Source: Escherichia coli
GTDB lineage: Bacteria; Pseudomonadota; Gammaproteobacteria; Enterobacterales; Enterobacteriaceae
NCBI RefSeq assembly: GCF_009931435.1
Contig: NZ_CP043414.1
Direction: 5' to 3' (one strand)
Length of the DNA stretch: 64,000 nucleotides
Shown: positions 28,432 to 52,478 of the stretch, in pieces
Numbering within the stretch: the stretch's first letter is position 1
Layout of the letters: the number at the start of each line of letters is the position of its first letter
Translations under genes and position numbers: made by a program
The notes under the pieces: model-generated
What the model was told of the DNA's origin: nothing
Seen by the model: the letters and a program-made list of their open reading frames with translations, nothing else
The model's database searches: none

Positions 28432-28903
28432 ATATCTATTACTCTCCCGAGAGTAAAACTATCAAACCAATGAGTAACCGATACAGCCTCGCAAATTCTT
28501 TCAGATAATTAACCCGTCACTGCGGCACGTTCTCTCATAAGGCGTGCCTGCTGTGTAATCCAGTATGTATCCGGCATACTTGACGGTTTAATAGAACTCA
28601 ATTCCTTTCCCAGGTAACCAACAACGATATCTTGTATAACACCCCAGGAGATACGACATTATGATGAGATGAGGTATGCTCCTCAGCGCCAATCAACGCC
28701 AGGGCTGGGCCAGTTTTGAGATCAGACTCATTCCCGGACTGACTTCAGGCGACATATATCAATGACGTTGGGGCAATAAAAGATAGCCGATGTAATACAT
28801 CTATTCAAATTTGTGATACATGTCAAAAAATTGGTTGACCAAACTCGTTATTTATATAAGGGCACTTACGAAGTGCACTCTTTTTTAAAGCGAGGAAGTA
28901 CCA

Positions 28904-29005
28904 ATGAAAGAGAATAAAGTACAGCAAATCAGTCATAAACTGATTAATATCGTTGTTTTTGTCGCAATTGTAGAATACGCCTATTTATTTCTCCATTTCT
29001 ATTAA
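28904..29005 (+). CDS. ykgR: 33-aa hydrophobic small protein (likely YkgR by synteny)
   Basis: ATG at 28904 preceded by GAGGAAG; MKENKVQQISHKLINIVVFVAIVEYAYLFLHFY has a single TM-like segment; lies just upstream of ykgM. Confidence 0.5.
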   Translation: MKENKVQQISHKLINIVVFVAIVEYAYLFLHFY

Positions 29006-29047
29006 TAACGGCAATAAACTGTTCACTTCAGTGATATTTAAAATATG
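28940..29047 (+). repeat. dispersed repeat, copy A (second copy at 48263..48369, about 94% identical)
   Basis: By-eye alignment of about 108 nt shows roughly 6 mismatches and 1 indel. Confidence 0.7.
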
Positions 29048-29340
29048 CATCCTCTCCCTTTTTTTTAAGTGATTATTATATCCGTGGGAGAGGAATACAC
29101 GCTATCAGGTAATCAATCAAACTGCGATAAATCATCGGCCAGTAAAGTGGAGATAGCCTCCATTCTCGAAAAATTCATACTCTCAGCGAAACCATCATCA
29201 ATCACTCATCCAGGCGTTTATGGGAGCGTCGCCAATGGCTGCTAACAATGCCAGACTTCCCCGTTGCCGAAATTCCACATACCACAAATGGTCACAGGGA
29301 TTGGGTGTTGAAATGATCCGGATGAGCATGTATCTTTACG

Positions 29341-29358
29341 GTTATGTTATAACATAAC
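29341..29358. promoter_or_regulatory. Zur box upstream of ykgM
   Basis: Perfect 18-bp palindrome GTTATGTTATAACATAAC centred 17 bp upstream of the ykgM start; resembles the Zur operator. Confidence 0.7.
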
Positions 29359-29366
29359 AGGTAAAA

Positions 29367-29633
29367 ATGATGAAACCCAATATCCATCCTGAGTATCGTA
29401 CTGTGGTGTTCCACGACACCAGCGTTGATGAGTACTTTAAAATCGGCTCGACTATCAAAACAGACCGTGAGATTGAGCTGGATGGCGTAACGTATCCGTA
29501 CGTAACAATTGATGTCTCTTCGAAATCGCACCCGTTCTATACAGGGAAGCTGAGAACAGTGGCATCAGAAGGAAATGTTGCACGGTTCACCCAACGTTTT
29601 GGTCGTTTTGTTAGCACGAAAAAGGGGGCGTGA
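29367..29633 (+). CDS. ykgM: ribosomal protein L31 paralog (type B, zinc-independent)
   Basis: 88-aa [22 protein letters not shown]... with L31 signature and no CxxC zinc ribbon. Confidence 0.92.
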
Positions 29634-29773
29634 TGAAAGTCCTTAACTCTCTGCGTACCGCAAAAGAACGCCATCCAGACTGTCAGATTGTGAAGCGAAA
29701 AGGACGGCTGTATGTGATTTGTAAATCTAATCCACGTTTTAAGGCCGTTCAGGGGCGTAAGAAAAAGCGTTGA
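29633..29773 (+). CDS. ykgO: ribosomal protein L36 paralog
   Basis: Not in the track (below size cutoff). ATG overlaps the ykgM stop (TGATG); translates to [46 protein letters not shown], 46 aa. Confidence 0.88.
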
Positions 29774-29807
29774 TTCATAATTCGCCGGATTAACGATATT
29801 TGTCTGA

Positions 29808-30035
29808 TTAATAATCAGACCGGATTAATGTTGGTGTATTGATTACACCAACATTAATTTTCCTGGAAATATATTCTTTAAGTTCATTTAAAGCCAACTG
29901 CCTGACGTTTCTCTCCGAATATTCCATTATATTAATGTTGATTTGTTGACCAACTTCGCCCCTGTATGCTGGTATCAACTCTCTTTTAGACTGAACAAGC
30001 CACTCCGCCCCCTCCCTTTGCGGAGCAGCCTGCAT
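29808..30035 (-). CDS. hypothetical 75-aa protein (ykgL-like by position)
   Basis: Track ORF only; overlaps the ykgMO terminator hairpin, so it may be spurious. Confidence 0.3.
   Translation of the reverse strand: MQAAPQREGAEWLVQSKRELIPAYRGEVGQQININIMEYSERNVRQLALNELKEYISRKINVGVINTPTLIRSDY
29824..29858 (+). terminator. ykgMO terminator hairpin
   Basis: ATTAATGTTGGTGTA-TTGAT-TACACCAACATTAAT, a perfect 15-bp inverted repeat followed by TTTTCC. Confidence 0.5.
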
Positions 30036-30791
30036 TTACACTCAAACTGTTAAGATGATAAATGTGGTAAATCTGTTGGTACTAACATAAAAACGTTTAC
30101 GCCACAGGAACAGCCTGATCCACCGGTAACCCCATCGCCGACGTTCGAGTGCCAGTTAGAGTAACGCGCACAGATGACTGCACGCAGTGCCCTGTCAAAG
30201 AGGCCATCGTTCCTGTGACAGCTGGCAGCCTTCGTTTAACTTCACTTAATTTGGCTCTTGGGGGGGCTTACCGAACAGATGACGTAGTCACACCTATTCA
30301 ATTTTTCACCACTTATTGGAGTAAACACCCATAACCATTTTGTGCGGCATGTTAATCCATTAAAACACCTTATTTATTGTCAAATCTTCTTTAATGATGG
30401 TCAATAATAGTTTTATGTTCTATTTATTATCATTAAAACTTGTTTTTTTACTAGTCGAGCACAAAACGCATTAAGACTATTCCTAACACCTCAGGGCAAA
30501 GTTCCTGGCTAATATAAAATGCAAGTAAGAATTGAACGTTATATTGCCAATAACCTTATGAAACTGAATGTCTTTTTCTTCTTATCAAAAAAGCAATATT
30601 TTCATTTTTAGTAAATATTGACTTAACCATGGAATTCCTTTTCTGTTCACATATTGACACTCATCAGGAAAAAAACATAAATTTAAGCCCAATCGAAAAT
30701 AATTAAAACTTAATCTCGTTTAACCTATATTGATATGTGCTACGTATCTTATTTACTTCCGATTTACTAACAACACTGAATGTACTTGTAA

Positions 30792-31403
<612 letters not shown>

Positions 31404-31477
31404 ACTCCAGGCAAGTTAGTTTTAAAAAATGACTCACAGGGACATCATGTCCTCAATTTAACTCGGGAAGAAAAGCA

Positions 31478-32065
31478 ATGAAAAAAAAGGTTCTGGCAAT
31501 AGCTCTGGTAACGGTGTTTACCGGCATGGGTGTGGCGCAGGCTGCTGACGTAACAGCTCAGGCTGTAGCGACATGGTCGGCAACAGCCAAAAAAGACACC
31601 ACCAGTAAACTGGTGGTGACGCCACTCGGTAGCCTGGCGTTCCAGTATGCCGAAGGCATTAAAGGCTTTAACTCACAGAAAGGTCTATTTGACGTGGCTA
31701 TTGAGGGTGACTCAACGGCTACCGCCTTTAAACTGACCTCACGTCTTATCACCAACACCTTAACCCAGTTGGATACCTCAGGTTCCACACTGAATGTGGG
31801 CGTGGATTATAACGGCGCGGCAGTCGAAAAAACTGGCGATACCGTGATGATCGATACCGCCAACGGCGTACTGGGCGGCAACCTTAGCCCGCTGGCTAAC
31901 GGTTACAATGCCAGCAATCGTACCACCGCACAGGATGGTTTCACCTTCTCCATCATCAGCGGTACCACCAATGGTACCACCGCAGTAACCGATTACAGCA
32001 CTCTACCGGAAGGCATCTGGAGCGGCGACGTTAGCGTACAGTTCGACGCGACCTGGACCAGTTAA
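31478..32065 (+). CDS. ecpA: E. coli common pilus major subunit EcpA (MatB)
   Basis: 195-aa ORF with signal peptide [22 protein letters not shown]. Confidence 0.93.
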
Positions 32066-32122
32066 TCTCTCTGATGTACCAGCAGGGGTAGCCCCCCTGC
32101 TTTATTCCTGGACGGAATTGTT

Positions 32123-32791
32123 ATGAAAAAGCACCTTCTGCCTCTCGCTCTGCTGTTTGCCGGAATATCTCCGGCCCATGCGCTGGATGTCGGCGATATA
32201 TCATCGTTTATGAACAGTGACAGCAGCACGCTGAGCAAAACAATCAAAAACAGTACCGACAGTGGTCGCCTCATCAATATCCGTCTCGAACGGCTCTCTT
32301 CACCGCTTGACGACGGGCAGGTTATCGCAATGGACAAGCCGGATGAGTTGCTACTCACTCCCGCCAGCTTGCTGCTACCCGCCCAAGCCAGCGAAGTGAT
32401 CCGCTTCTTCTATAAGGGACCAGTAGATAAAAAAGAGCGCTACTACCGCATTGTCTGGTTTGATCAGGCCCTCAGTGATGCGCAGCGCGATAATGCCAAC
32501 CGCAGCGCTGTGGCCACTGCTTCCGCCCGCATCGGCACCATTCTGGTCGTCGCCCCCCGCCAGGCGAACTACCGCTTTCAGTACGCCAACGGCTCCCTGA
32601 CAAATACAGGAAATGCGACGCTGCGGATCCTCGCCTACGGCCCCTGCCTGAAAGCCGCCAATGGTAAGGAGTGTAAAGAGAACTACTACCTGATGCCGGG
32701 CAAGTCGCGTCGTTTTACCCGCGTGGACACGGCGGATAACAAAGGACGGGTTGCACTTTGGCAGGGTGATAAGTTCATTCCCGTGAAATAG
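32123..32791 (+). CDS. ecpB: ECP chaperone EcpB
   Basis: 222-aa ORF with signal peptide; operon position. Confidence 0.9.
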
Positions 32792-32816
32792 ATAGCTGTG
32801 CAGATGGATAACGACA

Positions 32817-35342
32817 ATGCCTTTACGACGGTTCTCCCCAGGACTGAAAGCCCAGTTTGCCTTCGGCATGGTCTTTTTGTTCGTTCAGCCCGATGCCAGC
32901 GCTGCTGACATAAGCGCGCAGCAAATAGGTGGGGTGATTATTCCGCAGGCCTTCAGTCAGGCGCTTCAGGACGGCATGAGCATCCCGCTCTATATTCATC
33001 TCGCCGGTAGCCAGGGTCGCCAGGACGATCAGCGAATCGGCAGCGCTTTTATCTGGTTGGATGATGGACAGTTACGCATCCGGAAAATACAGCTGGAAGA
33101 GAGTGAAGATAACGCCAGTGTCAGCGAACAAACTCGACAGCAACTGATGACTCTGGCCAACGCCCCGTTCAATGAGGCCCTTACCATCCCCCTGACTGAC
33201 AACGCGCAGTTGGATCTCAGCTTGCGCCAACTGCTGCTGCAGCTGGTGGTCAAGCGCGAAGCACTGGGCACCGTACTACGCTCACGTAGCGAAGACATCG
33301 GGCAATCCAGTGTTAACACCCTCAGCAGTAACCTGAGCTATAACTTCGGCATCTATAACAACCAGTTGCGTAACGGCGGGAACAATACATCCAGCTATCT
33401 GTCGCTAAATAACGTGACAGCACTGCGCGAACATCATGTGGTGCTCGACGGCTCGCTGTATGGGATCGGTAGCGGTCAACAGGACAGTGAATTATATAAA
33501 GCGATGTATGAACGCGATTTTGCTGGTCACCGATTTGCCGGTGGAATGCTCGACACCTGGAACTTGCAGTCCTTAGGGCCGATGACCGCCATTTCAGCAG
33601 GGAAGATTTACGGCCTTTCCTGGGGAAACCAGGCCAGCTCCACCATCTTCGACAGCAGCCAGTCGGCCACGCCAGTGATCGCCTTTTTACCGGCGGCGGG
33701 CGAAGTACATCTCACCCGTGATGGGCGGCTACTAAGCGTTCAGAACTTCACCATGGGCAATCATGAAGTGGATACCCGAGGTCTACCGTACGGTATTTAC
33801 GATGTGGAAGTTGAGGTGATCGTTAACGGTCGCGTGATCAGCAAACGCACCCAGCGGGTCAATAAGCTGTTTAGCCGGGGGCGCGGTGTCGGTGCGCCGC
33901 TGGCGTGGCAGATATGGGGCGGCAGCTTTCATATGGATCGCTGGTCGGAAAACGGGAAAAAGACGCGACCAGCTAAAGAGAGTTGGCTAGCAGGAGCCTC
34001 GACCTCCGGCTCACTGAGTACGCTTAGCTGGGCGGCAACGGGATATGGGTACGATAATCAGGCAGTAGGTGAAACCCGTCTGACGCTGCCGCTTGGGGGA
34101 GCAATCAACGTTAACCTGCAAAACATGCTGGCCAGTGACAGCTCATGGAGCAATATCGGCAGCATCAGCGCCACACTACCGGGAGGCTTCAGTTCGCTGT
34201 GGGTTAACCAGGAGAAAACCCGCATTGGCAATCAATTGCGGCGTAGCGATGCCGACAACCGTGCAATCGGCGGCACACTCAACCTGAACTCACTGTGGTC
34301 GAAGCTGGGCACATTCAGCATCAGCTACAATGATGACCGCCGCTACAACAGCCATTATTACACGGCAGATTACTATCAAAGTGTTTACAGCGGTACCTTT
34401 GGTTCGCTTGGCCTGCGAGCCGGTATTCAGCGCTATAACAACGGCGACAGCAGCGCCAATACAGGGAAATATATCGCTCTCGATCTCTCGCTACCTCTGG
34501 GCAACTGGTTTAGCGCAGGGATGACTCATCAAAACGGCTACACCATGGCAAACCTGTCAGCACGCAAGCAGTTTGATGAAGGAACCATTCGCACTGTTGG
34601 TGCCAATCTGTCACGAGCCATCTCCGGCGATACCGGTGATGACAAAACCCTCAGCGGTGGGGCGTATGCACAGTTCGACGCTCGTTACGCCAGCGGAACG
34701 CTGAACGTCAATAGCGCGGCGGACGGCTACGTCAATACCAACTTGACCGCCAATGGCAGCGTCGGCTGGCAGGGTAAAAACATCGCTGCCAGCGGGCGGA
34801 CTGATGGCAACGCTGGGGTGATATTCAACACCGGGCTGGAGGACGACGGTCAGATCAGCGCCAAAATCAACGGGCGGATTTTCCCGCTTAACGGCAAGCG
34901 CAACTACCTCCCGCTCTCTCCGTATGGGAGATATGAGGTGGAGTTGCAGAACAGCAAAAACTCACTCGACAGCTACGATATCGTCAGCGGCCGCAAAAGC
35001 CATCTGACCCTCTATCCAGGCAATGTCGCCGTCATTGAGCCAGAGGTGAAGCAGATGGTTACCGTCTCCGGTCGTATCCGTGCAGAAGACGGCACACTGC
35101 TGGCTAACGCACGGATTAACAACCATATCGGCCGAACCCGAACCGATGAAAACGGCGAGTTTGTCATGGACGTGGATAAGAAATACCCCACTATCGATTT
35201 TCGCTACAGTGGCAATAAAACCTGCGAAGTGGCACTGGAACTCGACCAGGCGCGCGGTGCCGTCTGGGTCGGTGATGTGGTCTGCAGCGGCCTCTCATCG
35301 TGGGCGGCGGTGACGCAGACAGGAGAAGAGAATGAGAGTTAA
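32817..35342 (+). CDS. ecpC: ECP outer-membrane usher EcpC
   Basis: 841-aa ORF with signal peptide; usher-sized. Confidence 0.93.
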
Positions 35343-36975
35343 CCTACTGATAGCGATGATAATCTTTGCGCTATTCTGGCCAGCAACCGCGCTCAGAGCT
35401 GCAGTGAGCAAAACAATCTGGACGGATGCACCGGCACGCGAGTTTGTGTTTGTCGAAAACAACTCAGACGACAACTTTTTCGTCACGCCTGGCGGGGCGC
35501 TGGATCCGCGCCTGACCGGTGCCAACCGCTGGACCGGTTTAAAATACACTGGCTCAGGAACCATCTATCAACAAAGCCTCGGCTACATTGATAACGGTTA
35601 CAACACCGGCCTTTATACCAACTGGAAGTTTGATATGTGGCTGGAAAATTCGCCGGTTTCATCTCCTTTAACTGGCTTGCGCTGCATCAACTGGTACGCA
35701 GGGTGTAATATGACCACCAGTCTTATCCTGCCGCAAACCACCGACGCCAGTGGATTTTATGGCGCGACGGTGACCAGCGGCGGCTCGAAGTGGATGCACG
35801 GCATGTTGTCAGACGCGTTTTACCAGTATCTGCAACAAATGCCCGTTGGCAGCAGCTTTACGATGACCATCAATGCCTGCCAAACCTCAGTGAACTATGA
35901 CGCCAGCAGCGGCGCGCGCTGTAAGGATCAGGCCTCCGGCAACTGGTATGTTCGCAACGTCACCCATACGAAAGCAGCAAATTTGCGGTTGATAAATACC
36001 CACTCGCTGGCGGAGGTATTTATCAACAGCGACGGAGTACCGACTCTGGGCGAAGGGAACGCCGACTGCCGGACGCAAACCATCGGCAGCCGTTCAGGAT
36101 TAAGTTGTAAGATGGTTAACTATACCCTGCAAACAAACGGGCTCAGCAACACCTCAATCCATATATTCCCGGCGATCGCCAACTCGTCGTTAGCCTCGGC
36201 CGTCGGGGCGTACGATATGCAGTTCAGTCTGAATGGTAGTTCATGGAAACCGGTGAGCAATACCGCTTATTACTACACCTTCAACGAGATGAAGAGCGCA
36301 GACTCGATCTATGTTTTCTTCTCGAGCAACTTCTTTAAGCAGATGGTGAACCTGGGGATCAGCGATATCAACACCAAAGATCTATTCAACTTTCGCTTTC
36401 AGAACACCACATCACCGGAGTCTGGCTGGTATGAATTTTCTACCTCCAACACGCTGATTATCAAACCCCGTGATTTCAGCATCAGTATTATCTCCGATGA
36501 ATATACTCAGACACCGTCGCGGGAGGGATATGTTGGCAGCGGCGAGTCGGCACTCGATTTCGGCTATATCGTAACCACCAGCGGTAAAACAGCTGCCGAC
36601 GAAGTGCTGATCAAGGTGACCGGACCCGCGCAGGTGATTGGCGGACGCTCCTATTGTGTCTTCAGCTCCGATGACGGTAAGGCGAAAGTACCGTTCCCGG
36701 CGACGCTTTCCTTTATTACCCGCAACGGAGCTACAAAAACCTACGATGCCGGGTGCGATGATAGCTGGCGGGATATGACCGATGCGCTGTGGCTAACCAC
36801 ACCGTGGACTGATATCTCTGGCGAAGTGGGGCAGATGGATAAGACCACTGTCAAATTTTCGATTCCAATGGATAACGCCATTTCGCTGCGTACGATAGAT
36901 GATAACGGCTGGTTTGGCGAAGTTAGCGCTTCAGGAGAGATTCATGTTCAGGCGACATGGCGTAACATTAACTAA
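35332..36975 (+). CDS. ecpD: ECP tip adhesin EcpD
   Basis: 547-aa ORF with signal peptide; start overlaps the ecpC stop. Confidence 0.9.
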
Positions 36976-37654
36976 GGCCCTGCTGACAGTGGTCTGTATG
37001 CTGGCGACACCTTTGACACAGGCGATTTCGGTCGGCAATCTGACTTTTTCACTGCCGTCCGAGACTGACTTTGTCAGCAAACGTGTAGTGAATAACAACA
37101 AAAGCGCGCGGATATACCGTATTGCCATCAGTGCCATCGATAGCCCAGGCAGCAGTGAATTGCGCACTCGACCGGTGGATGGTGAACTGCTTTTCGCTCC
37201 CCGCCAGCTGGCGTTGCAGGCTGGTGAGAGTGAGTATTTTAAATTTTACTATCATGGCCCCCAGGATAACCGCGAGCGCTACTACCGGGTCTCATTTCGC
37301 GAGGTCCCCACTCGCAACCAGACAAGACGCAGCCCAACCGGCGGCGAGGTCAGCACTGAGCCGGTGGTGGTGATGGATACCATTCTGGTAGTACGACCTC
37401 GTCAGGTTCAGTTTAAATGGTCCTTCGACCAGGTGACAGGAACGGTAAGTAACACCGGCAACACGTGGTTTAAGCTACTGATTAAACCAGGATGTGATTC
37501 GACCGAAGAGGAAGGCGACGCCTGGTATCTACGTCCGGGAGACGTAGTTCATCAGCCTGAGTTACGTCAGCCGGGGAATCATTATCTGGTCTATAACGAC
37601 AAATTCATTAAGATTAGCGATTCCTGTCCTGCTAAGCCCCCTTCGGCGGACTAA
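36944..37654 (+). CDS. ecpE: ECP chaperone EcpE
   Basis: Track ORF 36899..37654; likely start at MFRRHGVTL (236 aa); shares motifs with EcpB (RYYR, VVRPRQ). Confidence 0.88.
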
Positions 37655-37967
37655 GACTTATCCATCGGACGAGGGAAGAATTCCACCTCAGAGACTCAAA
37701 TAATCGTTTAAATGATGTGGAAGCGATCGTCAATGTCACCTGTAATGATGGGCTTTCTCATATGTACACCATAGTGTTCAGGAGACACGGAAAAGTGCCA
37801 GGCAGCCTGCTAACGAGTGGTTTCTTCACGAATTAGTACGTAAAATCGGTAACGGCTGGAAATCATTCAATACTCACACTATCGAAAGTTCCCCAGCCAA
37901 CCGCGGTACGTTCTTACATACGATGTACCGCTGTTCTCTTTACGATTTATAGCTGTACTGGTGAATT

Positions 37968-38297
37968 ATGAGCAATCTGAATCCATGCATGACGTGTGGT
38001 GCCTGTTGTGCATTTTTCCGCGTCTCTTTTTACTGGGCCGAAGCCGACGATGCTGGCGGTACCATTCCCGCCAGGCTCACTGAACAAATATCCCCTTTTC
38101 ACCGATGCATGAGCGGTACCAATCAGAAAAACCCCAGATGTATTGCCCTTGCAGGAACACCGGGCAAAAATGCCTGCTGCACGATATATAAAAATCGATC
38201 GTCCACGTGCAGAGAATTCGCCATGTCTGGTGAGAACGGAGAAGTCAATGAGGCTTGCAATCGTGCAAGAGCTAAATACGGGCTGACACCGTTATAA
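37968..38297 (+). CDS. ykgJ: Cys-rich putative iron-sulfur/zinc-binding protein YkgJ
   Basis: 109-aa ORF with CMTCGACC and further Cys clusters. Confidence 0.85.
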
Positions 38298-38545
38298 AGA
38301 TGCAATAATTAATTGCACTGCCCCGCCAGCTATAATCGCGGGGCTTCGTTTTTCAGGGATAACAAAACCCGAAACTTCTTCCATCTGCCAGCAACAATGC
38401 CTCTTCCTCTATAGGGTTCTCCGGATCTACAGCATCCTGAAGTAGCGCGATGTACTCACTGGCTATCTGCATCAGAAAGTTAAAAACAATGTTTTTAACC
38501 TATAAAAATGGCGCTGTATTTGCGCCATTTTTATCATTCAATGCA

Positions 38546-39160
38546 TTATCTGTTTGAGCCTAAAGGGATCTCAGGGTCTGGCTCATGAGTAATTCTGTTT
38601 CGTAAATCTCTGCGAATAATTTCAATGGACCAGAACCAGACTAAATGTCCAAAAATTTCAGAAACATTCTCATACCACGGGAGATCAAACAGAGGTGGCG
38701 TCAGTCCCATGAGAGGGAATGAAATCATATGAACAAAAAGTTGGGCTAAAGCACCTGCCAGTAAGCCCTGCCAGAGTTTAATTTTTGGAAATACTTCAGC
38801 GACCACACAATAACCGACAGCAAACACTATCGAAAAGATAATGTGCGTAACACCAACCCAGTTAAAGACATGCCCGGCAAAGGTATAAACAGCCGAATTT
38901 GGATCTGTCAGTCCCAGCCAGTCTCGAAGAAAAATATACGGAGGATTGAGAAAATTACGGGAGCAATCAATTTGCCCAGCAGCCCTGATTAATGATTCCG
39001 GGCCACACGCTGCATTAAACATATCCACCGGGCTACGTGGCGGCAATGGAACTTCAGCCCCCCACTTCACAAATGCGGAAACAACGCCAGCAATTAGCCC
39101 AATGAATGCAGCAAGACCATAACGTCTGCGGTTCGGTGGAGTTTGTTCAAATATATTCAT
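38546..39160 (-). CDS. yagU: DUF1440 inner-membrane protein YagU
   Basis: 204-aa hydrophobic ORF at the expected position next to paoA. Confidence 0.85.
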
Positions 39161-39565
39161 ATTTACCCTGTTTGTTTCATTATGTTGTACACCTCTTCAG
39201 GAGTATTCATAAAACAAGATAAATGTAAAGAACTGTATTGTTTTGTATAATGCAATGGTGACTAATCGCCAATTAATATAAGCACCATCATTTCTCCCTA
39301 TTTTTATGTTAGAAGTGACAACGACTTGCAGGGTGATGCAGAGCTGACAATCACAGGTTTCCTTATCGGTTTTTGCATCGCACAACTAAAGCAATAAACT
39401 AGCTCCCGTCATCGGCGAATATGAATTAATTAGCCGGGCTCATAGCTGCATTCGCGTTTTAAGAATAATCCTCCTGCTCTCACCGACTATGCTTAACGTT
39501 TAAAAAAGCATCAACACTCTCGCAACGCACTCTTATTTTCCCCTTTAGAATACCGGAGGCCTGGT

Positions 39566-40255
39566 ATGAGCAACCAAGGCGAATACCCCGAAGATAATCG
39601 GGTTGGGAAGCACGAGCCGCACGATTTTAGTTTGACCCGCCGCGATCTGATTAAAGTGAGCGCCGCAACGGCGGCGACCGCCGTGGTTTATCCTCATTCT
39701 ACGCTTGCGGCAAGCGTTCCGGCAGCTACACCCGCGCCAGAGATAATGCCCCTGACACTTAAGGTGAACGGCAAAACCGAGCAGCTTGAGGTGGATACCC
39801 GAACCACGCTACTGGACGCTTTGCGTGAAAATCTGCATCTGATCGGTACCAAGAAAGGTTGCGATCACGGACAGTGCGGAGCCTGTACCGTACTGGTCAA
39901 TGGTCGCAGGCTTAATGCCTGCCTGACGCTGGCAGTCATGCATCAGGGGGCCGAGATCACCACCATTGAAGGCCTGGGTTCACCAGAGAATCTTCACCCC
40001 ATGCAGGCGGCCTTTATCAAGCATGATGGCTTCCAGTGCGGCTACTGCACCTCCGGGCAAATTTGCTCATCAGTAGCGGTGCTAAAAGAGATTCAGGACG
40101 GCATTCCCAGTCACGTCACGGTCGATTTGGTTTCCCCTCCAGAAAGAACTGCCGATGAGATCCGTGAACGTATGAGCGGCAACATCTGTCGCTGTGGTGC
40201 ATACGCTAACATCCTTGCCGCCATTGAAGACGCTGCGGGGGAGATAAAATCATGA
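39566..40255 (+). CDS. paoA: periplasmic aldehyde oxidoreductase 2Fe-2S subunit PaoA
   Basis: 229-aa ORF with Tat-type signal ([18 protein letters not shown]) and two [2Fe-2S] Cys clusters. Confidence 0.93.
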
Positions 40256-41208
40256 AGGCGTTTACCTATGAACGTGTGAACACCCCTGCCGAGGCGGCAC
40301 TTAGCGCTCAGCGCGTACCCGGCGCAAAATTTATCGCTGGCGGGACCAATCTGCTGGACCTGATGAAGCTGGAAATTGAAACGCCAACCCACCTTATCGA
40401 TGTGAACGGGCTCGGGCTCGATAAGATTGAAGTGACCGACGCGGGTGGGCTGCGCATCGGCGCACTGGTACGGAACACCGACCTGGCGGCTCACGAGCGC
40501 GTGCGTCGTGATTACGCGGTACTCTCCCGCGCTCTGCTCGCTGGCGCGTCTGGTCAGTTACGTAATCAGGCAACCACCGCAGGTAATCTGCTCCAGCGCA
40601 CGCGCTGCCCCTATTTTTACGACACCAATCAGCCCTGCAATAAGCGCCTGCCCGGGAGCGGCTGCGCGGCACTTGAAGGCTTTAGCCGTCAGCACGCGGT
40701 GGTAGGCGTAAGCGAAGCCTGCATTGCCACCCATCCGAGCGATATGGCGGTCGCAATGCGGTTGCTGGATGCGGTGGTGGAAACCATCACGCCGGAGGGA
40801 AAAACTCGCAGTATCACACTGGCTGATTTTTATCACCCACCGGGGAAAACGCCGCACATTGAAACCGCCCTGCTTCCCGGTGAGCTTATCGTTGCGGTGA
40901 CGTTACCTCCGCCGCTCGGCGGAAAACATATCTACCGCAAGGTGCGCGATCGCGCCTCCTACGCCTTTGCCCTGGTATCGGTCGCGGCGATTATTCAGCC
41001 TGACGGCAGCGGGCGCGTCGCGCTGGGCGGAGTAGCACATAAGCCCTGGCGCATTGAGGCTGCGGATGCTCAGCTATCCCAGGGGGCGCAGGCCGTGTAT
41101 GACGCGCTGTTCGCCAGCGCCCATCCCACCGCTGAAAATACCTTTAAACTCCTGTTGGCGAAGCGAACGCTTGCCTCCGTACTGGCTGAAGCGAGGGCAC
41201 AGGCATGA
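40252..41208 (+). CDS. paoB: aldehyde oxidoreductase FAD-binding subunit PaoB
   Basis: 318-aa ORF, translationally coupled (ATGA overlap) to paoA. Confidence 0.93.
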
Positions 41209-43403
41209 AATTTGATAAACCCGCAGGGGAAAACCCGATCGATCAGCTGAAGGTTGTCGGTCGTCCCCATGACCGCATCGACGGACCGCTGAAAACTACC
41301 GGCACGGCACGCTACGCCTACGAATGGCATGAAGAAGCCCCCAACGCCGCCTATGGCTATATCGTCGGTTCCGCCATTGCCAAAGGACGCCTCACCGCCC
41401 TAGATACGGACGCCGCGCAAAAAGCGCCGGGCGTACTGGCTGTCATTACCGCCAGTAACGCTGGGGCACTCGGCAAAGGCGACAAAAACACCGCCAGGCT
41501 GTTAGGCGGCCCCACTATTGAGCACTATCATCAGGCCATTGCGCTGGTAGTGGCCGAGACCTTCGAACAGGCGCGAGCGGCGGCCTCGCTGGTGCAGGCG
41601 CACTATCGCCGTAATAAAGGAGCTTACTCCCTGGCGGACGAGAAACAGGCCGTCAGTCAGCCGCCGGAAGACACGCCCGATAAAAACGTTGGTGACTTTG
41701 ACGGGGCTTTCACCTCCGCTGCAGTGAAAATTGATGCTACATACACGACCCCGGACCAGAGCCATATGGCGATGGAGCCGCATGCCTCGATGGCCGTCTG
41801 GGATGGAAATAAGCTTACCCTCTGGACCTCAAATCAGATGATTGACTGGTGCCGCACCGATCTGGCAAAAACGCTGAAAGTGCCCGTGGAGAATGTGCGT
41901 ATTATCTCCCCGTATATCGGCGGAGGGTTTGGCGGCAAGCTATTCCTGAGAAGCGATGCGCTGCTGGCGGCCCTCGCCGCCCGTGCGGTGAAACGTCCGG
42001 TTAAAGTGATGCTCCCCCGCCCCACTATTCCCAATAACACCACGCACCGCCCCGCCACCCTTCAGCACCTGCGTATCGGTGCCGACCAGAGCGGGAAAAT
42101 CACCGCTATCTCACATGAAAGCTGGTCCGGAAACCTGCCCGGCGGCACGCCGGAAACGGCGGTACAGCAAAGCGAATTACTCTACGCAGGGGCAAACCGT
42201 CATACCGGCCTGCGGCTCGCCGCGCTTGATTTGCCGGAAGGGAACGCCATGCGTGCGCCCGGCGAAGCCCCCGGTCTGATGGCGCTCGAAATCGCGATCG
42301 ACGAACTGGCGGAAAAAGCGGGCATCGATCCCGTCGAGTTTCGCATCCTGAATGACACTCAGGTTGACCCCGCCGACCCGACGCGCCGCTTCTCTCGCCG
42401 TCAGCTTATCGAGTGCTTGCGCACCGGAGCGGATAAATTTGGCTGGAAGCAGCGCAACGCTACACCCGGACAGGTGCGCGACGGGGAGTGGCTAGTCGGC
42501 CACGGTGTTGCGGCGGGCTTTCGCAATAATCTGCTGGAAAAATCGGGTGCTCGGGTTCACCTCGAACAAAATGGCACCGTTACCGTAGAAACGGACATGA
42601 CCGACATTGGCACCGGCAGCTACACCATTCTGGCCCAGACGGCAGCGGAAATGCTTGGCGTACCGCTGGAGCAGGTTGCGGTTCACCTCGGCGATTCCAG
42701 TTTCCCGGTTTCTGCGGGTTCTGGTGGACAATGGGGCGCGAATACCTCCACCTCCGGCGTTTACGCCGCCTGTGTGAAACTTCGCGAAATGATTGCCTCG
42801 GCGGTCGGGTTTGATCCTGAGCAGTCGCAGTTTGCCGACGGCAAGATTACCAACGGTACCCGAAGCGCCACGCTACATGAGGCCACCGCAGGCGGCAGAC
42901 TGACAGCGGAAGAGAGCATTGAGTTCGGCACTCTCAGCAAGGAGTACCAGCAATCGACCTTTGCCGGGCATTTTGTGGAGGTCGGCGTGCATAGCGCGAC
43001 GGGAGAAGTTCGGGTCCGGCGTATGCTCGCCGTGTGCGCAGCGGGGCGCATTCTGAATCCGAAAACTGCACGCAGCCAGGTCATTGGCGCGATGACTATG
43101 GGCATGGGCGCGGCACTGATGGAGGAGCTGGCGGTAGATGACCGTTTGGGCTACTTCGTTAATCACGATATGGCGGGGTATGAGGTGCCGGTTCATGCGG
43201 ATATCCCAAAACAGGAGGTGATTTTCCTGGATGATACCGACCCCATCTCCTCCCCGATGAAGGCCAAAGGTGTCGGTGAGCTGGGCCTGTGCGGCGTGAG
43301 CGCGGCTATCGCCAACGCGGTGTATAACGCCACCGGTATTCGGGTACGGGATTATCCCATCACTCTGGATAAGCTGCTCGATAAACTGCCGGATGTGGTT
43401 TAA
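41205..43403 (+). CDS. paoC: aldehyde oxidoreductase molybdopterin subunit PaoC
   Basis: 732-aa ORF, xanthine dehydrogenase-family large subunit. Confidence 0.95.
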
Positions 43404-43412
43404 GGAGGAACA

Positions 43413-44369
43413 ATGTCATACTCGCTTTTTGACAAAGACGAGCACTGGCATAAGCCAGAGCAGGCGTTTCTCACCGATGACCACCGGACCATTCTGCGCT
43501 TCGCCGTAGAGGCGCTAATGTCCGGTAAAGGAGCGGTGCTGGTGACGCTGGTGAAGATACGCGGCGGCGCGGCGCGCCCGCTCGGAGCACAGATGGTGGT
43601 GCGCGAAGATGGTCGTTACTGCGGTTTTGTCTCTGGCGGCTGCGTGGAGGCCGCTGCCGCTTTTGAAGCGCTGGAGGTGATGGGCTCAGGCTGCGATCGC
43701 GAAATTCGCTATGGCGAAGGTTCGCCGTGGTTTGACATCGTTCTGCCCTGCGGCGGTGGGATCACGCTGACGCTCCATAAACTACGCTCGGCACAGCCTC
43801 TGCTCGCCGTGCTGAACCGCCTGGAACAGAGAAAACCGGCGGGTCTGCGCTACGATCCGCAAGCTCAATCGCTGGTGTGCCTGCCCACGCAAACCCGAAC
43901 GGGCTGGAATCTCAATGGCTTTGAGGTGGGGTTCAGGCCATGCGTCAGGCTGATGATTTACGGACGTTCTCTTGAGGCGCAGGCAACCGCGAGTCTTGCA
44001 GCAGCCACAGGCTATGACAGCCATATCTTCGATATTTTTCCGGCCTCAGCCAGCGCTCAGATCGATACCGATACGGCGGTCATTTTGCTGTGCCATGATC
44101 TCAACCGGGAGCTGCCAGTGTTGCAGGCCGCGCGAGAGGCAAAACCCTTTTATCTCGGCGCATTGGGCAGCTATCGAACCCACACGTTACGTCTGCAAAA
44201 GCTCCACGAGCTAGGATGGTCCAGGGAGGAGACAGCGCAAATCCGGGCACCCATCGGGATATTCCCCAAAGCCCGGGATGCGCATACTCTGGCACTCTCC
44301 GTGCTGGCAGAAGTCGCTTCTGTACGTCTCCATCAGGAGGAGGATTCATGCCTGCCCCCGTCGTCGTGA
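43413..44369 (+). CDS. paoD: molybdenum cofactor insertion chaperone PaoD (XdhC family)
   Basis: 318-aa ORF after paoC. Confidence 0.9.
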   Translation: MSYSLFDKDEHWHKPEQAFLTDDHRTILRFAVEALMSGKGAVLVTLVKIRGGAARPLGAQMVVREDGRYCGFVSGGCVEAAAAFEALEVMGSGCDREIRYGEGSPWFDIVLPCGGGITLTLHKLRSAQPLLAVLNRLEQRKPAGLRYDPQAQSLVCLPTQTRTGWNLNGFEVGFRPCVRLMIYGRSLEAQATASLAAATGYDSHIFDIFPASASAQIDTDTAVILLCHDLNRELPVLQAAREAKPFYLGALGSYRTHTLRLQKLHELGWSREETAQIRAPIGIFPKARDAHTLALSVLAEVASVRLHQEEDSCLPPSS

Positions 44370-44477
44370 TCCTTGCGGCCGGGCGTGGAGAGCGCTTTCT
44401 CGCCTCCGGGGGAAATACCATAAATTAAGAGAAAAATCTGCAGTAGCCGTTTTAGAAAATCACCTAAATCGTTTAAA

Positions 44478-44501
44478 AGAGCGCCCAACCCATAGTGGGC
44501 G
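44478..44501. terminator. hairpin between convergent paoD and the MFS gene
   Basis: AGCGCCCA-ACCCATAG-TGGGCGCT inverted repeat. Confidence 0.35.
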
Positions 44502-44547
44502 CTCATCGCCTTGTGTAACTTATTCAGCAACGCGCGCCCTCGCCGGA

Positions 44548-45741
44548 CTAAAGCGCACCGGCCTTCTGGCGTGCGGTAACAAAGGTCAGTACGCCAGCGC
44601 AAAGGAGCAGCACGCTACTCATAGCAAACGTGCTCTGCCAGCCAAGGCGGTCAAACACAATGCCTCCTGCCGTTGATCCAAGGGCGATGGCGAGCTGAAT
44701 CACCGCGACCATGAGCCCGCCTCCGGCTTCGGCGTTGTCAGGCAACGTACGCGCAATCCATGTCCACCATCCGGTTGGCGCGGCGGTGGCCAGCATGCCC
44801 CAGAGTCCTAACAGCAGCGAGACCGTCCAGACGTGATGCCCGATAAGCATCAGACCGATAGCAATGACGGCCATAAGTCCGGGTATGGCCATCAGCGTGG
44901 GGTAGAATTTTCTGTTGAGAAATGCCGAAACAACCAGCGTGCCAATAAAACCGGCCACGCCGATAATCAGCAAAATCAACGACAAGCCTGAGGAATTAAC
45001 CCGTGTCACCGACTCCAGAAACGGGCGCACATAGGTGAATAGCGCAAACTGCCCCATGAAAAACAGGCCACAAGCTATCATGCCGACCACAACCATGCGG
45101 CGGCTAAATAAGCGGAATACCGTGCCAAATGACGTGTGGCTTTTATTCGCATCCATACTGGGCAGGCTGATGCACTGCCAGATAAAGGCGACAACCGCCA
45201 TGGGCACCAGGCACAAGAAAGCGCCTCGCCATCCGACCGTAGCCCCCAGATAGCTTCCCAGCGGCGCGGCCACGACCGTCGCCAGCGCATTACCGGCATT
45301 GAAAATCGCCAGCGCACGCGTGACCTGTTGCTGCGGCACCAGACGAATCGCCGTTGCCGCAGACATCGACCAGAATCCGCCAATAGCCACACCAATCATC
45401 GCACGACCGACCATATACATCAGATAACTGGAAGCCAGCGCAATAATAAGCCCCGAGACGGCCATCAGAACCGTCATCCCCAGCAGCAGGAACTTACGAT
45501 TCATCTTTCCAGCTAGCGTTGAAAGCGTCAGGCTGGTCAGAACCGCCAGCGCGCCGGAGATAGCAATCCCCTGCCCTGCCAGCCCCTCCGTCACGCCTAA
45601 ATCGCGGGTAATCGGCGTGAGCAGGCTGACGGGCATAAATTCAGAAGCAATCAGCACAAACACGCACAGGGTCATGGCAAAAATACCGCCCCAGTATGCG
45701 TGCTGATGATGAGGTGATGGTGTTTGGCTTAGTGTCGACAT
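44548..45741 (-). CDS. MFS transporter (12-TM, drug/sugar efflux-like)
   Basis: 397-aa highly hydrophobic ORF with MFS-like loop motifs. Confidence 0.85.
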   Translation of the reverse strand: MSTLSQTPSPHHQHAYWGGIFAMTLCVFVLIASEFMPVSLLTPITRDLGVTEGLAGQGIAISGALAVLTSLTLSTLAGKMNRKFLLLGMTVLMAVSGLIIALASSYLMYMVGRAMIGVAIGGFWSMSAATAIRLVPQQQVTRALAIFNAGNALATVVAAPLGSYLGATVGWRGAFLCLVPMAVVAFIWQCISLPSMDANKSHTSFGTVFRLFSRRMVVVGMIACGLFFMGQFALFTYVRPFLESVTRVNSSGLSLILLIIGVAGFIGTLVVSAFLNRKFYPTLMAIPGLMAVIAIGLMLIGHHVWTVSLLLGLWGMLATAAPTGWWTWIARTLPDNAEAGGGLMVAVIQLAIALGSTAGGIVFDRLGWQSTFAMSSVLLLCAGVLTFVTARQKAGAL

Positions 45742-45816
45742 AGTGAAATTTCACAAAGATCAGGATAAAAGCCACCGGCCATAGACCGGTGGCTTTGCAT
45801 CAATTCAGGAGAGGTT

Positions 45817-46953
45817 TTATTTCAGTTTGGTCTGGAAAAATTGTTCGAACTTCGCGAAAGGTATTTTTCCGGCCACGTTATCGTACAGGTCCACGTGATT
45901 TGCCCCTGGTACCACCACCAGCTCTTTGTCTTTACTGCCAACCGCCTTGTAAGCATCTTCAGCAAAATAGCGTGAATGCGCTTTCTCACCGGTCACAATC
46001 AGCGTCGGAATGGTGATTTCACTGGCGTAGCTCAACAGCGGCATATTCATAAATGACAGCGGCATCGTTGCCGTCCACGCCCCGGTAGAGTTAACGGAAC
46101 GTTCGTGGAAGCCGCGCGGCATGCGATAGTAGTCAAAGAACTCTTTCAGTACCGGATGAGGATTTGCCGGCAGCGTTTCTGGCAGAATACGCTCGCCCGC
46201 ACTGACCTTGCCGTTGCTGTCGACATTAATATCATGACCACCGTGAGCGAACGTTCCGCTCTGCGCATCCTTCCAGCGCTGTTCATTCAGATATTGCAGA
46301 ACAGCACGACGGTCGGCGGTAGAATAACGGTCTTTGCCATCCCCCACACCATGGCCCATCGCCCGGCTCATGTCATACATCACGCTGGTAGCTACCGCTT
46401 TAACGCGGGTATCCATCGCCGCGTCGTTCAGCGCCATGCCGCCCCAGCCACAAATACCGAGCAGCCCGATACGGTTGCGATCTACCTCTTTTTGCAGCCC
46501 TAAGAAATCCACCGCCGCGCTGAAATCTTCAGTGTTGATATCCGGTGAAGCGACGTTTCGCGGATAGCCGCCGCTTTCCCCGGTGTAAGAAGGATCGAAC
46601 GCCAGGGTAACAAACCCTCGTTCCGCCAGCGTCTGCGCATACAGGCCGCTGGATTGCTCTTTCACCGCGCCAAATGGCCCACTGACCGCAATCGCCGCCA
46701 GCTTGCGATCGCCACGGTCTTTAGGCAGGTAAAGATCGCCCACTAAGGTGATGCCATATCGGTTCGGGAACGAGACTTTACGGTGATCGACTTTCTGGCT
46801 CTCGGCGAACGTTTTATCCCATTTATCTGTCATGGACACAGGGGCATTAGGATTGGTTGAATCAGCATAACTCATTGTCGTGACTCCACTTAATGATGCG
46901 AAAAGCAGCATGGTCGGCATCGCGATTTTTAGCGTTCGGGTGAAGGCTTTCAT
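45817..46953 (-). CDS. secreted alpha/beta-fold hydrolase
   Basis: Track ORF 45817..46974; probable start at MKAFTRTLKIAMPTMLLFASLSGVTTMSYA (signal peptide); LGICGWGGMA motif; paralog of 26196..27116. Confidence 0.8.
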   Translation of the reverse strand: MKAFTRTLKIAMPTMLLFASLSGVTTMSYADSTNPNAPVSMTDKWDKTFAESQKVDHRKVSFPNRYGITLVGDLYLPKDRGDRKLAAIAVSGPFGAVKEQSSGLYAQTLAERGFVTLAFDPSYTGESGGYPRNVASPDINTEDFSAAVDFLGLQKEVDRNRIGLLGICGWGGMALNDAAMDTRVKAVATSVMYDMSRAMGHGVGDGKDRYSTADRRAVLQYLNEQRWKDAQSGTFAHGGHDINVDSNGKVSAGERILPETLPANPHPVLKEFFDYYRMPRGFHERSVNSTGAWTATMPLSFMNMPLLSYASEITIPTLIVTGEKAHSRYFAEDAYKAVGSKDKELVVVPGANHVDLYDNVAGKIPFAKFEQFFQTKLK

Positions 46954-47139
46954 AAAAATCCCCATAAAAAACAACAGAGAGATACAGGTTTCCGACGGAC
47001 AACACTGCGGTGCTTTACTTTGATGGGGTCATTATAGTGAGCAGAATTAGTGCTGATTAGGGGGCGATTAATGCTAAGATTAATACCATATTGTTATAAA
47101 TTAATGCGGAGATTGCCGGCATGAAGGGGGGATGTTTCA

Positions 47140-48024
47140 ATGGCGAAAAGGGAGAACTACAACGAGCTGTACCTGTTTATGCAGGTGGTGCGGGAAGGCA
47201 GCTTTACCGCAGCGGCTCAGCGGCTGGGTCTTGCTCAGTCAGGAGTCAGCCGTTCTGTTCGCGAGCTTGAAGAAAGGCTCGGCGTCCAGCTGCTGGTGCG
47301 CACCACGCGTAAACTGTCGCTGACGCAAGCAGGCGAGCAGCTCTACCAGAAGACGGCATCTGGATTTGAAATGTTAGATCTTGGGCTTGCCACACTGGCG
47401 CACTATCGAGAGACGCCCTCCGGCACGGTGCGTATCAATGCCAGCCAGCACGCGATTGATAAATGCCTGCTGCCAAAGCTGGCGGTATTTAAACAGCGAT
47501 ATCCTGATATCCGGCTTGAACTGATAAATGAGAGCCGGTTCGTCGATATCATCGAGGAAAGATTCGATGCTGGTGTCCGCCTGGGGCCTGAAGTCGGCCA
47601 GGGTATGGTCGCGGTACGCATCACGCCCGATATGGAGATGGCAATTGTGGGGACTCCGGAACATTTTCGTCGCTATGGTTTTCCGCAAACCCCGGCGGAT
47701 TTAAAGGCGCATCCCTGTATCGCCTATCAGTTTGCCGACGGCAGCGTATACCAGTGGGAACTCAATCAGGATGATAAAAAAATCACTCATCGCCCTGAAG
47801 GGCAATGGGCCCTATCCGACAGCTATATGGAAGCAGAAGCCGCACGGCTGGGCCTCGGATTGGCCTATGTTCCTGTTGAACTGGTTGCGGATGATTTAGA
47901 ACACGGTAAGCTTATCAGAGTGTTGCAGCGTTACAGCCTGCGAATGGAGGGATTGTTTCTCTATTACCCTCATCGCAACGTCTCCCCCGCTCTGCGGATG
48001 GTCATTGATACATTGAAAATCTGA
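47140..48024 (+). CDS. LysR-family transcriptional regulator
   Basis: 294-aa ORF with LysR HTH (GSFTAAAQRLGLAQSGVSRSVRELEERL). Confidence 0.85.
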   Translation: MAKRENYNELYLFMQVVREGSFTAAAQRLGLAQSGVSRSVRELEERLGVQLLVRTTRKLSLTQAGEQLYQKTASGFEMLDLGLATLAHYRETPSGTVRINASQHAIDKCLLPKLAVFKQRYPDIRLELINESRFVDIIEERFDAGVRLGPEVGQGMVAVRITPDMEMAIVGTPEHFRRYGFPQTPADLKAHPCIAYQFADGSVYQWELNQDDKKITHRPEGQWALSDSYMEAEAARLGLGLAYVPVELVADDLEHGKLIRVLQRYSLRMEGLFLYYPHRNVSPALRMVIDTLKI

Positions 48025-48262
48025 ACGTTAACAACGACCGACTCTTCACTGTGCAATATTGTGTCAGGTAGTCACTCTGCGTTCAATTCCAGGGGCCGCT
48101 TTGAGCGAGAAAGAGCGGACTTATCTGTACAAGGGGACTATCCAGCAATGGAGATCACCCATAAGAAAAAAGTACCTGGCTCCCTCGACAACCTTCATCC
48201 GGGAATTTAGCCTCAATCAACATTTTTATATCTGTCAGGTTACTTCATTATGAAAACCGATC

Positions 48263-48369
48263 AATATCGTTGTTTTTGTTGCAATAGTAGAATACGCCTA
48301 TTTATTCCTCCATTTCTATTAATAACGGCCATAAACCGTTCACTTCACTGATATTTAAAATATGCATCC
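48263..48369 (+). repeat. dispersed repeat, copy B (decayed ykgR-like segment)
   Basis: About 94% identical to 28940..29047; the upstream part differs by a roughly 30-nt deletion plus a 1-nt insertion, which destroys the ykgR reading frame. Confidence 0.7.
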
Positions 48370-48734
48370 TTTTCCTGCTTTTCAAGTTGTTCAGCGGCGT
48401 AAGAAAACGTATTAAATATGAATTCGACGATTTAACCATTTCTGTCTGATTGGTAATCATCTGTGATTAATGCTGGTCTATTGATTACGCCAGCATTAAC
48501 CGCTTAGGGATGTATTCTTCCTGATCATATACATCCCTCGAAAAAGAGAGAAAATAAAACTGTGTCCAATATTACTCTACCACTCCAGACCGAAGTATCG
48601 GTAGAATTAGCAGAACGACTGGTACAATAGATTGGGATAGCGTCATTTGTCAGGTATTCCATTGCCTGACAAATGACAATTTTGAGTCAATAGACGTGCT
48701 TCTTGATCATGTCTTACAAATTATACCATGAACC

Positions 48735-49007
48735 TTATGAAGCATCATTTTTACTGACTGGTGTTAACTTTGCTATCATATAAACTCTGTTCTTAAAAAA
48801 CGCGCCCAGAATTTTATATGATTTCCCTTGTTTTTCTGCCTGTAAAGAAATTTCTTTTTCAGTGCTGTTAATGGTTGAACCGACGGCAGTAATCTTTTTG
48901 GCGACGCTACTGAATGATAATAAAGACAGTGTAACCACAACAATTAAAGAACAGATAGTATTCACGTTAATTCTCCTGACAATTGAGAGGGTGAGTTTTA
49001 TATACAT
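48735..49007 (-). CDS. small secreted DUF1471-like protein
   Basis: 90-aa ORF with hydrophobic N-terminus; loose resemblance to YhcN/BhsA-type proteins. Confidence 0.45.
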   Translation of the reverse strand: MYIKLTLSIVRRINVNTICSLIVVVTLSLLSFSSVAKKITAVGSTINSTEKEISLQAEKQGKSYKILGAFFKNRVYMIAKLTPVSKNDAS

Positions 49008-49176
49008 AGGTATTAAACATGAGTCATATTTACTCCAAGAGAAAACACTCCTTCTGTAATTAAACCTTCATCTCCTTCGGGGTGAGCAATACATAATGCA
49101 TCTTGCTATGCAAAACAGGTGGATATCAATTTTCCTCCCGACCTATTTAATAAAACGTGAATATAAAAGTTATTCT

Positions 49177-49914: not shown

Positions 49915-49997
49915 ATGTGTTCGGAGAGAGAATAGAACTTTATGATTGGTTCCAGTATCCTGCTTTCAATGTACTCAATGGTTAGCGGCATTAAACA

Positions 49998-52468: not shown

Positions 52469-52478
52469 CGGCTGCTCC

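Follow-up and report, generated by a model that had tools for sequence, protein, structure and literature searches.

Two imperfect direct repeats bracket a 19.3-kb block

We analysed a stretch of Escherichia coli DNA of 64,000 nucleotides (nt) (RefSeq assembly GCF_009931435.1, contig NZ_CP043414.1), here called the window, in which a 19.3-kb gene block lies between two same-orientation copies of sequence from the ykgR-ykgM-ykgO cassette. The left part of the locus reads bet ... fdeC, a LysR gene, a hydrolase gene, a flavin oxidoreductase gene, the first repeat copy (copy 1), ykgL and ecpRABCDE. To the right follow ykgJ, yagU, paoABCD, genes for an MFS transporter, a hydrolase and a LysR protein, the second repeat copy (copy 2), and then a hypothetical gene, an SDR gene, another LysR gene, thrW, proA and proB (Table 1). 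The genes that a first-pass annotation had placed between the repeats match the RefSeq annotation of R32_14_1F, a genome 99% identical to the window.

Positions 27500-50000 of the window were scanned for direct repeats. Each copy consists of two segments, D1 and D2, which are co-linear, and the start-to-start spacing of the copies is 19,317 nt. The D1 copies are 134 nt long and agree at 121 of 134 positions (90.3%), their longest exact runs being 22, 22, 20 and 17 nt. The D2 copies are 121 nt long and 75% identical, with a longest exact run of 12 nt. With up to 3 mismatches allowed, the window contains a 57-nt core of D1 at exactly two places, compared to 0.00 expected occurrences in 100 shuffled sequences. 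The repeats bracketing the block are thus real and imperfect. Both alignments agree with the first-pass description of two same-orientation repeats made of ykgR-like sequence, the 3′ end of ykgO and a terminator. The length given there for the ykgR-like part (about 110 nt) was too short, as 134 nt were measured. The proposed coordinates of the block were essentially right, except that copy 2 extends to 48499 and does not end at 48369.

Within R32_14_1F, the D1 of copy 1 (7438-7571, equivalent to window 28937-29070) differs from that of the window at 8 of 134 positions (94% identity). This local patch of divergence within the repeat is possibly a recombination or conversion tract. Another direct repeat, of 44 nt and 70% identity, links ecpB (32405-32448) and ecpE (37244-37287) and is ordinary paralogy of two chaperone genes of the E. 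coli common pilus (ECP).

Table 1. Features of the locus, with positions in the window.
Feature	Position	Strand	Basis
ykgR, intact, 33-codon small membrane protein (copy 1)	28904-29005	+	sequence; annotated as ykgR in R32_14_1F
D1 of copy 1: ykgR codons 12-33 and 65 nt past the stop codon	28937-29070	+	repeat alignment
ykgM-ykgO, type B ribosomal proteins L31 and L36	29370-29773	+	sequence; R32_14_1F annotation
D2 of copy 1: last 12 ykgO codons and two tandem hairpins, then a T-run	29737-29857	+	repeat alignment, folding
Block interior: ykgL, ecpRABCDE, ykgJ, yagU, paoABCD, MFS transporter, alpha/beta hydrolase, LysR	29858-48253		annotation, open reading frames
D1 of copy 2: in-frame relic of ykgR codons 12-33 (48254-48322) and downstream sequence	48254-48387	+	repeat alignment
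D2 of copy 2: remnant of ykgO (its last 11 codons) with a single hairpin	48379-48499	+	repeat alignment, folding
Right flank common to two-copy and block-less genomes: hypothetical (-), SDR oxidoreductase (-), LysR (+)	48735-50897		annotation
thrW, tRNA-Thr CGT, unoccupied integration site 2.5 kb from copy 2	51025-51100	-	sequence

An intact cassette and an apparent relic

Copy 1 is an intact, working ykgR-ykgM-ykgO-terminator cassette. The left edge of D1 falls exactly at ykgR codon 12, a spacer of 364 nt separates ykgR from ykgM, and the tandem hairpins behind ykgO fold at -29 kcal/mol (z = -7.4). About 667 nt of this copy (29071-29736), which comprise the spacer, ykgM and most of ykgO, are without a counterpart in copy 2. 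In O157 FDAARGOS_293 (2906-5556), ykgR is frameshifted and ISEc8, an insertion sequence (IS) of the IS66 family, lies between ykgR and ykgM, within the D1-D2 interval.

In copy 2, the 22 codons of ykgR are kept in register with one replacement (L13P) and four synonymous changes. The start codon is missing, an in-frame TGA stands directly upstream, and the sequence upstream of 48254 has no homology to the promoter or 5′ end of ykgR (local alignment score of 25, compared to 24 ± 4 for shuffled sequence). On these three grounds copy 2 holds no intact expressible gene. Its ykgO tail reads FQVVQRRKKTY*. Only the second hairpin is kept, with one compensatory change of a T-A to a C-G pair, while the first hairpin and the T-run are lost. 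D1 runs directly into D2, joined at a TTTT(A/C)AAG microhomology that copy 1 has at both edges. In the NCBI records of R32_14_1F, LH50-c and O157, the Prokaryotic Genome Annotation Pipeline (PGAP) marks copy 2 as an N-terminally truncated ykgR pseudogene, and the adjoining ykgO remnant and hairpin are unannotated. Judged from its sequence, copy 2 is a pseudogene relic of a second version of the ykgR-ykgM-ykgO cassette.

Block-less alleles in E. coli

To survey the locus we used 5,426 complete E. coli genomes. The 22.5-kb region is covered in one piece to at least 80% in 892 of them; 912 hold the flank of copy 2 and about 5,070 hold copy 1. Both copies are thus carried by some 900 of the genomes. 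We also searched with a chimeric query that joins the left flank, the repeat and the right flank, as in a deletion product, and none of the genomes covered at least 80% of it. In three genomes (6EVA, wlxctx60 and GF4-3), an unbroken match begins 130 nt upstream of ykgR, takes in an intact ykgR and continues through the tail of copy 2 into the right flank. Their gene order is fdeC, a fragment of the flavin oxidoreductase gene, ykgR, hypothetical, SDR, LysR ... thrW. The 19.3-kb block is missing at the locus in all block-less genomes, and a combined query for ykgMO, ecpA and paoA found none of these genes anywhere in the chromosomes of the three.

An index of public assemblies has the exact 76-amino-acid hypothetical protein of 6EVA in 763 blocks, and all 8 distinct places listed were block-less. 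The exact look-up of the corresponding protein of GF4-3 gave no record. At the TTTTCAAG deletion junction, GF4-3 (around 20290-20315) carries three tandem copies of the 9-nt unit TTCAAGCTG, which is present as a single copy in the other block-less genomes and in copy 2.

The first-pass annotation had suggested that the presence or copy number of the block may vary between strains, and had proposed to look by comparative genomics for deletions or duplications with endpoints in the repeats. Presence indeed varies with endpoints at the repeats, as block-less junctions were found in three complete genomes, in many further assemblies and in a separate Escherichia lineage. Variation in copy number was not seen: the tandem-duplication junction (LysR spacer, repeat, ykgM) was found in 0 of 5,426 genomes, and the best coverage of this query, 58%, corresponds to the normal arrangement.

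Related arrangements in other Escherichia lineages

When one genome per GTDB species was scanned with a pattern of the C-terminus of YkgR, four Escherichia species representatives were found besides E. coli contaminant contigs. Two contigs assigned to Firmicutes, contig122 of Sulfoacidibacillus thermotolerans (403 nt) and NODE_260 of Alkalicoccobacillus porphyridii (264 nt), match the ykgR region of E. coli at 97.8% and 98.5% identity, respectively, and are almost certainly E. coli contamination.

The E69 lineage is labelled E. coli and its core genes are about 92-93% identical to those of the window. All six places read in this lineage have the order thrW, LysR, SDR, hypothetical, intact ykgR and flavin oxidoreductase, and ykgM, ykgO, ecp and pao genes are found at none of the six. 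E69 has the TTTTCAAG junction and the ykgO remnant of copy 2. Because this deletion junction is identical in both, the relic-type cassette predates the split between E. coli and E69.

Other relatives were less helpful. The lineage typified by SCPM-O-B-8794 has ykgR-ykgMO-ykgL-ecpRABCDE, followed by about 390 nt of unrelated sequence and thrW; as no relic is present, it is uninformative on an earlier copy 2. In E1V33 (10020-10363), ykgR is followed by about 30 nt of downstream sequence of the copy-1 type, about 250 nt of unrelated DNA, a partial attachment-site (att) copy of thrW and an island. This is an island-associated deletion of about 22 kb that ends just outside D1, and the protein look-up with the E1V33 flavin oxidoreductase returned the same strain only. 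In E. albertii, ykgR-ykgM-ykgO does not adjoin fdeC or ecp; its neighbours are an espG-containing region on one side and csiD-lhgO-gabDTP on the other. This different chromosomal context makes the species uninformative as an outgroup for polarity, and means that the ykgR-ykgMO cassette was moved or separately acquired within the genus. Homologues of the SDR protein and of the block-end LysR protein were likewise discarded for polarity, since they are 85-90% identical across many enterobacterial genera and form no clusters of Escherichia species.

Age and site pattern of the block-less alleles

Divergence close to the junction was measured over the 348 nt to the right of the repeat (48388-48735). 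The four two-copy strains differ among themselves by 0.6-2.0%, whereas their divergence from 6EVA is 6.9-7.8% and that from GF4-3 5.5-6.4%. 6EVA and GF4-3 differ from each other by 8.4%, and all of them differ from the E69 clade by about 17.5%. About 1.2 kb further to the right the divergence drops to about 2%. When all complete genomes were considered, the best two-copy match over the junction-proximal 670 nt or so was 94.0% identical for 6EVA and 92.7% for GF4-3, and no near-identical pair of deleted and undeleted genomes was found among them. The junction-proximal divergence of 6-8% indicates that the block-less alleles are old and not recent derivatives of the sampled two-copy genomes. They are also more diverse than the tight cluster of copy-2 sequences, to which they are paraphyletic by distance.

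The informative sites of D1 were compared in four E. coli copy-1, four copy-2, two E. coli block-less, three E69-clade and three outgroup sequences. From position 29060 on, copy 2 and all block-less sequences, including E69, cluster together as opposed to all copy-1 sequences. The E. coli block-less alleles share with copy 2 the derived bases 28945C, 28969A, 29054T and 29056T, which span the repeat from its 9th to its 120th nucleotide; with copy 1 they share only 28990T, which is homoplastic. The later copy-2 changes 28941C, 29013C and 29031C/A are absent from them. Since the copy-2 derived bases run from the 9th to the 120th nucleotide, the block-less repeat does not look like the product of a crossover in mid-repeat. 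As to a switch point within the single repeat, the pattern at the four sites, with agreement with copy 1 confined to ancestral or homoplastic sites, fits either no internal crossover or a heteroduplex over the whole repeat. At 29011, 29015 and 29020, derived bases are common to all E. coli sequence types, which implies an exchange of sequence between copy 1 and the relic-type cassette within the species.

We also considered whether some E. coli copy-1 allele carries the bases of 6EVA. Of the 5,072 genomes matching the ykgR-D1 sequence of 6EVA, the three block-less genomes alone reached an identity of at least 99%, and this possibility was rejected. Among the matches listed, the copy-1 alleles are each 98.3% identical to it (3 mismatches in 174 nt), and the mismatches in the four copy-1 alleles read lie at 28945, 28963 and 28969. 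On the simplest reading of the site pattern, the block-less repeat would represent copy 2 in its untruncated form.

Proposed origin of the repeats

On balance, we read the repeats as a scar left when two alternative arrangements fused in ancient times, by a mechanism that we infer. The interval between ykgR and thrW would have existed in Escherichia in two old forms. The long form would comprise ykgR-ykgMO-ykgL-ecp-ykgJ-yagU-pao-MFS-hydrolase-LysR, and the short form an intact ykgR, the deletion junction, the ykgO remnant, hypothetical, SDR, LysR and thrW. The cassette of the short form would have lost ykgM and most of ykgO by a deletion of about 667 bp between the TTTT(A/C)AAG microhomologies, and in two-copy genomes the relic would additionally be without the first 11 ykgR codons and the promoter. 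In the window, the long form would then be followed head-to-tail by the short form, and the join between them would cut the ykgR of the short form at codon 12. As for the direction of change, we have a mild preference for the short form being the older resident, into which the segment 28937-48253 was inserted once, over an ancient deletion, to which we assign a lesser though still considerable probability. Such an insertion would need a single homologous exchange, within ykgR or to its left, together with a single illegitimate join at 48253/48254. A single insertion into the short form fits the greater diversity of the block-less alleles as compared to copy 2. The block-less form persists as a rare, old allele, and swaps between the two-copy and the block-less form could take place by ordinary homologous recombination in the long shared flanks, which makes intrachromosomal exchange unnecessary. 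The alignments suggest that the block can be gained or lost between strains by such allelic replacement, with a left arm up to about 29053 and a right arm from 48254. A further-reaching version, in which the short allele (without YkgM/YkgO, the common pilus and Pao) is a trans-species polymorphism that predates the split between E. coli and E69, and the near-universal arrangement of E. coli is a later fusion of the long and the short allele, spread through the species by recombination, is put forward only tentatively, and we doubt it more than we believe it.

Several points weigh against an insertion into a resident short form. Its direction relies on four informative sites and on distances over short regions, and a neighbour-joining tree built on the entire right flank has an almost star-like shape. 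The outgroups compared include no lineage outside E. coli with the right end of the block. A heteroduplex over the whole repeat, once repaired or replicated, can give a pure copy-2 product, so that the site pattern is compatible with deletion as well. The shared bases at 29011, 29015 and 29020 would require an E. coli-like source for the incoming copy 1, or else its later homogenisation by gene conversion. Moreover, the core neighbours of 6EVA are 98.2-98.5% identical to those of K-12, HS and O157, and 96.9% to others. By its core genes 6EVA is thus an ordinary E. coli that nests inside the species, which under strict vertical descent favours a derived deletion. The corresponding alternative, with an overall probability clearly below that of the fusion, is that the two-copy form is ancestral and that the block-less forms arose in ancient times by RecA-dependent or annealing-type recombination between the copies, at least twice (once in the E69 type, and once or twice in E. 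coli). The block-less junction is the exact product predicted for such an event, with the left flank, the whole of ykgR and the tail of copy 2. In addition, the 5′ two-thirds of the single repeat resembles copy 1 of its own species, as E69 shares 28987G with copy 1 of E1V33, and the E. coli types share 29011G, 29015T and 29020T. The two-copy form is ancestral to most E. coli, K-12 among them, and the region proximal to thrW is visibly prone to deletion. However, two or three independent events would be needed at one target of 134 nt with about 90% identity and a longest run of 22 nt, and the single repeat of E. coli has the derived bases of copy 2 from nucleotide 9 on. Neither block-less allele has a close counterpart among the sampled two-copy alleles, and the excess of diversity among block-less over copy-2 alleles also speaks against deletion. 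Finally, the relic cassette must once have been a free-standing short arrangement in any case.

Readings in which the repeats recombine actively fare considerably worse. The first-pass annotation saw in them substrates for RecA-mediated deletion or amplification. Direct repeats of 134 and 121 nt are indeed present, and perfect repeats of 113 bp excise and re-insert an analogous locus in Salmonella (PMC12074656). For recombination by RecBCD a minimal efficient processing segment (MEPS) of 23-27 bp has been described, and for RecF one of 44-90 bp, while divergence and distance lower the efficiency (PMC12074656). The longest run of 22 nt in D1 is borderline for RecBCD and clearly too short for RecF, the identities are 90% and 75% with no perfect run above 22 nt, and the copies lie 19 kb apart. 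The population data point in the same direction, since no duplication junction was found in the 5,426 genomes and the three deletion junctions are all on old diverged alleles. With runs just below the MEPS, no recent deletion junction and no duplication junction, the description as active substrates was not supported, and we consider it very improbable that the block is lost or amplified in tandem at an appreciable frequency today. The repeats are probably essentially passive. Even less credible is a mobile genomic island with the repeats as att sites of a site-specific recombinase. The block is located 2.5 kb from thrW, where integrase islands are present in relatives; however, no integrase, excisionase or transposase gene was found in the annotation or the open reading frames between 28937 and 48253. 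The repeats are fragments of ykgR and ykgO and not derived from a tRNA gene, thrW itself is outside the block, and D1 and D2, which adjoin in copy 2, lie apart in copy 1. The island reading was rejected because of the missing recombinase and because the repeats are gene fragments.

Other structural variation around the locus

The last gene of the block encodes a LysR protein (47140-48024) and is followed by a spacer of 229 nt up to copy 2. The GC content of the block is a mosaic of 37-61%. thrW is a known integration site of phages and islands, and in other strains it anchors several unrelated deletions and insertions. K-12-type genomes match the window at 28340-44423 and then at 50559-51076. 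The 6.1 kb in between (window 44424-50558), which contain the MFS, hydrolase and LysR genes, copy 2, the hypothetical and SDR genes and the 5′ part of the right-hand LysR gene, are lost next to the CP4-6 integrase. The LysR pseudogene 'yagP' of K-12 (22089-22605) is the 3′ end of the right-hand LysR gene (window 50559-50897) and not a remnant of the block-end LysR gene. This identity indicates that K-12-type genomes descend from the two-copy form via the 6.1-kb deletion.

UTME-7 is about 100% identical to 6EVA in the proA-rtcB region and carries, at the locus (16930-19886), an IS1-bounded deletion from the helix-turn-helix (HTH) gene adjoining betA to thrW. This deletion takes fdeC, ykgR and the right flank, and an ABC-three-component (defence-type) gene pair adjoins thrW. 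LHM10-1 has a prophage of more than 20 kb at thrW. Both strains, near relatives of 6EVA, were considered as its possible 'parents' and set aside, as the larger deletion in one and the thrW prophage in the other mean that neither supplies parental repeat sequences. In ET729 and CUPS05, ykgM-ykgO-ykgL and paoA are only about 3.1-3.6 kb apart, with an IS5 transposase gene in between in one genome and an HTH gene in the other. Here the ecp operon, ykgJ and yagU appear to have been deleted by a route unrelated to the repeats. The other structural changes at the locus, in K-12, E1V33, UTME-7 and one of the two ecp-less genomes, are associated with IS elements or integrases.

In the proA-proB region (51215-53585), proA of the window is 94.3-95.0% identical to proA of LH50-c, 6EVA and GF4-3, and 94.4% identical to that of a different Escherichia species-level lineage, whereas ProA is near-identical among LH50-c, 6EVA and GF4-3. 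The proA region of the window may be an imported or unusually divergent allele.

Comparison with known systems and implications

The closest parallel is the wzy locus of Salmonella Typhimurium DT8/DT30, where a block of 2.6 kb between two perfect direct repeats of 113 bp is excised and re-acquired in culture (PMC12074656). At both loci, same-orientation repeats of about 110-130 nt enclose a gene block, block-less strains with a single repeat exist in nature, and no recombinase gene is associated. The deleted wzy strains, however, are close to the undeleted ones, whereas here the repeats are 90% and 75% identical, the block measures 19.3 kb, the alleles are 6-8% diverged and no recent event was found. 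The thrW-anchored variable region, which harbours the CP4-6 prophage in K-12 and P22-type phages, lies in the same chromosomal neighbourhood and has undergone repeated independent deletions and insertions ending at thrW (the 6.1-kb loss plus CP4-6 in K-12, E1V33, UTME-7 and LHM10-1). In contrast to the block polymorphism, which ends inside ykgR, 2.5 kb away, and contains no mobile-element gene, these events are associated with integrases or IS elements and end at a tRNA gene or an IS element. Copy 2 also resembles pseudogene relics of duplicated or allelic cassettes, in this case the Zur-regulated ykgM-ykgO together with ykgR, in that it keeps the frame and the codon register. Judged by titles and abstracts, none of the listed literature that mentions ykgR appears to treat the relic, the block or the block-less allele, or a link between them.

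Our finding is ordinary comparative genomics, and points neither to new biology nor to an actively unstable locus. The block encodes the E. coli common pilus, a periplasmic aldehyde oxidoreductase, and the Zur-regulated zinc-free paralogues of L31 and L36. The common pilus in particular is frequently taken to be present in nearly all E. coli. All three functions are cleanly missing at one junction in a sister species-level lineage and in an established lineage of E. coli itself, which provides natural knock-outs and is a caution against relying on ecp or ykgM to mark the species. The two repeats form a small readable record of how the chromosome was assembled at this position. If the trans-species polymorphism were true, the pair would be a datable scar of the (re-)acquisition of the common pilus, Pao and the zinc-sparing ribosomal proteins by E. 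coli.

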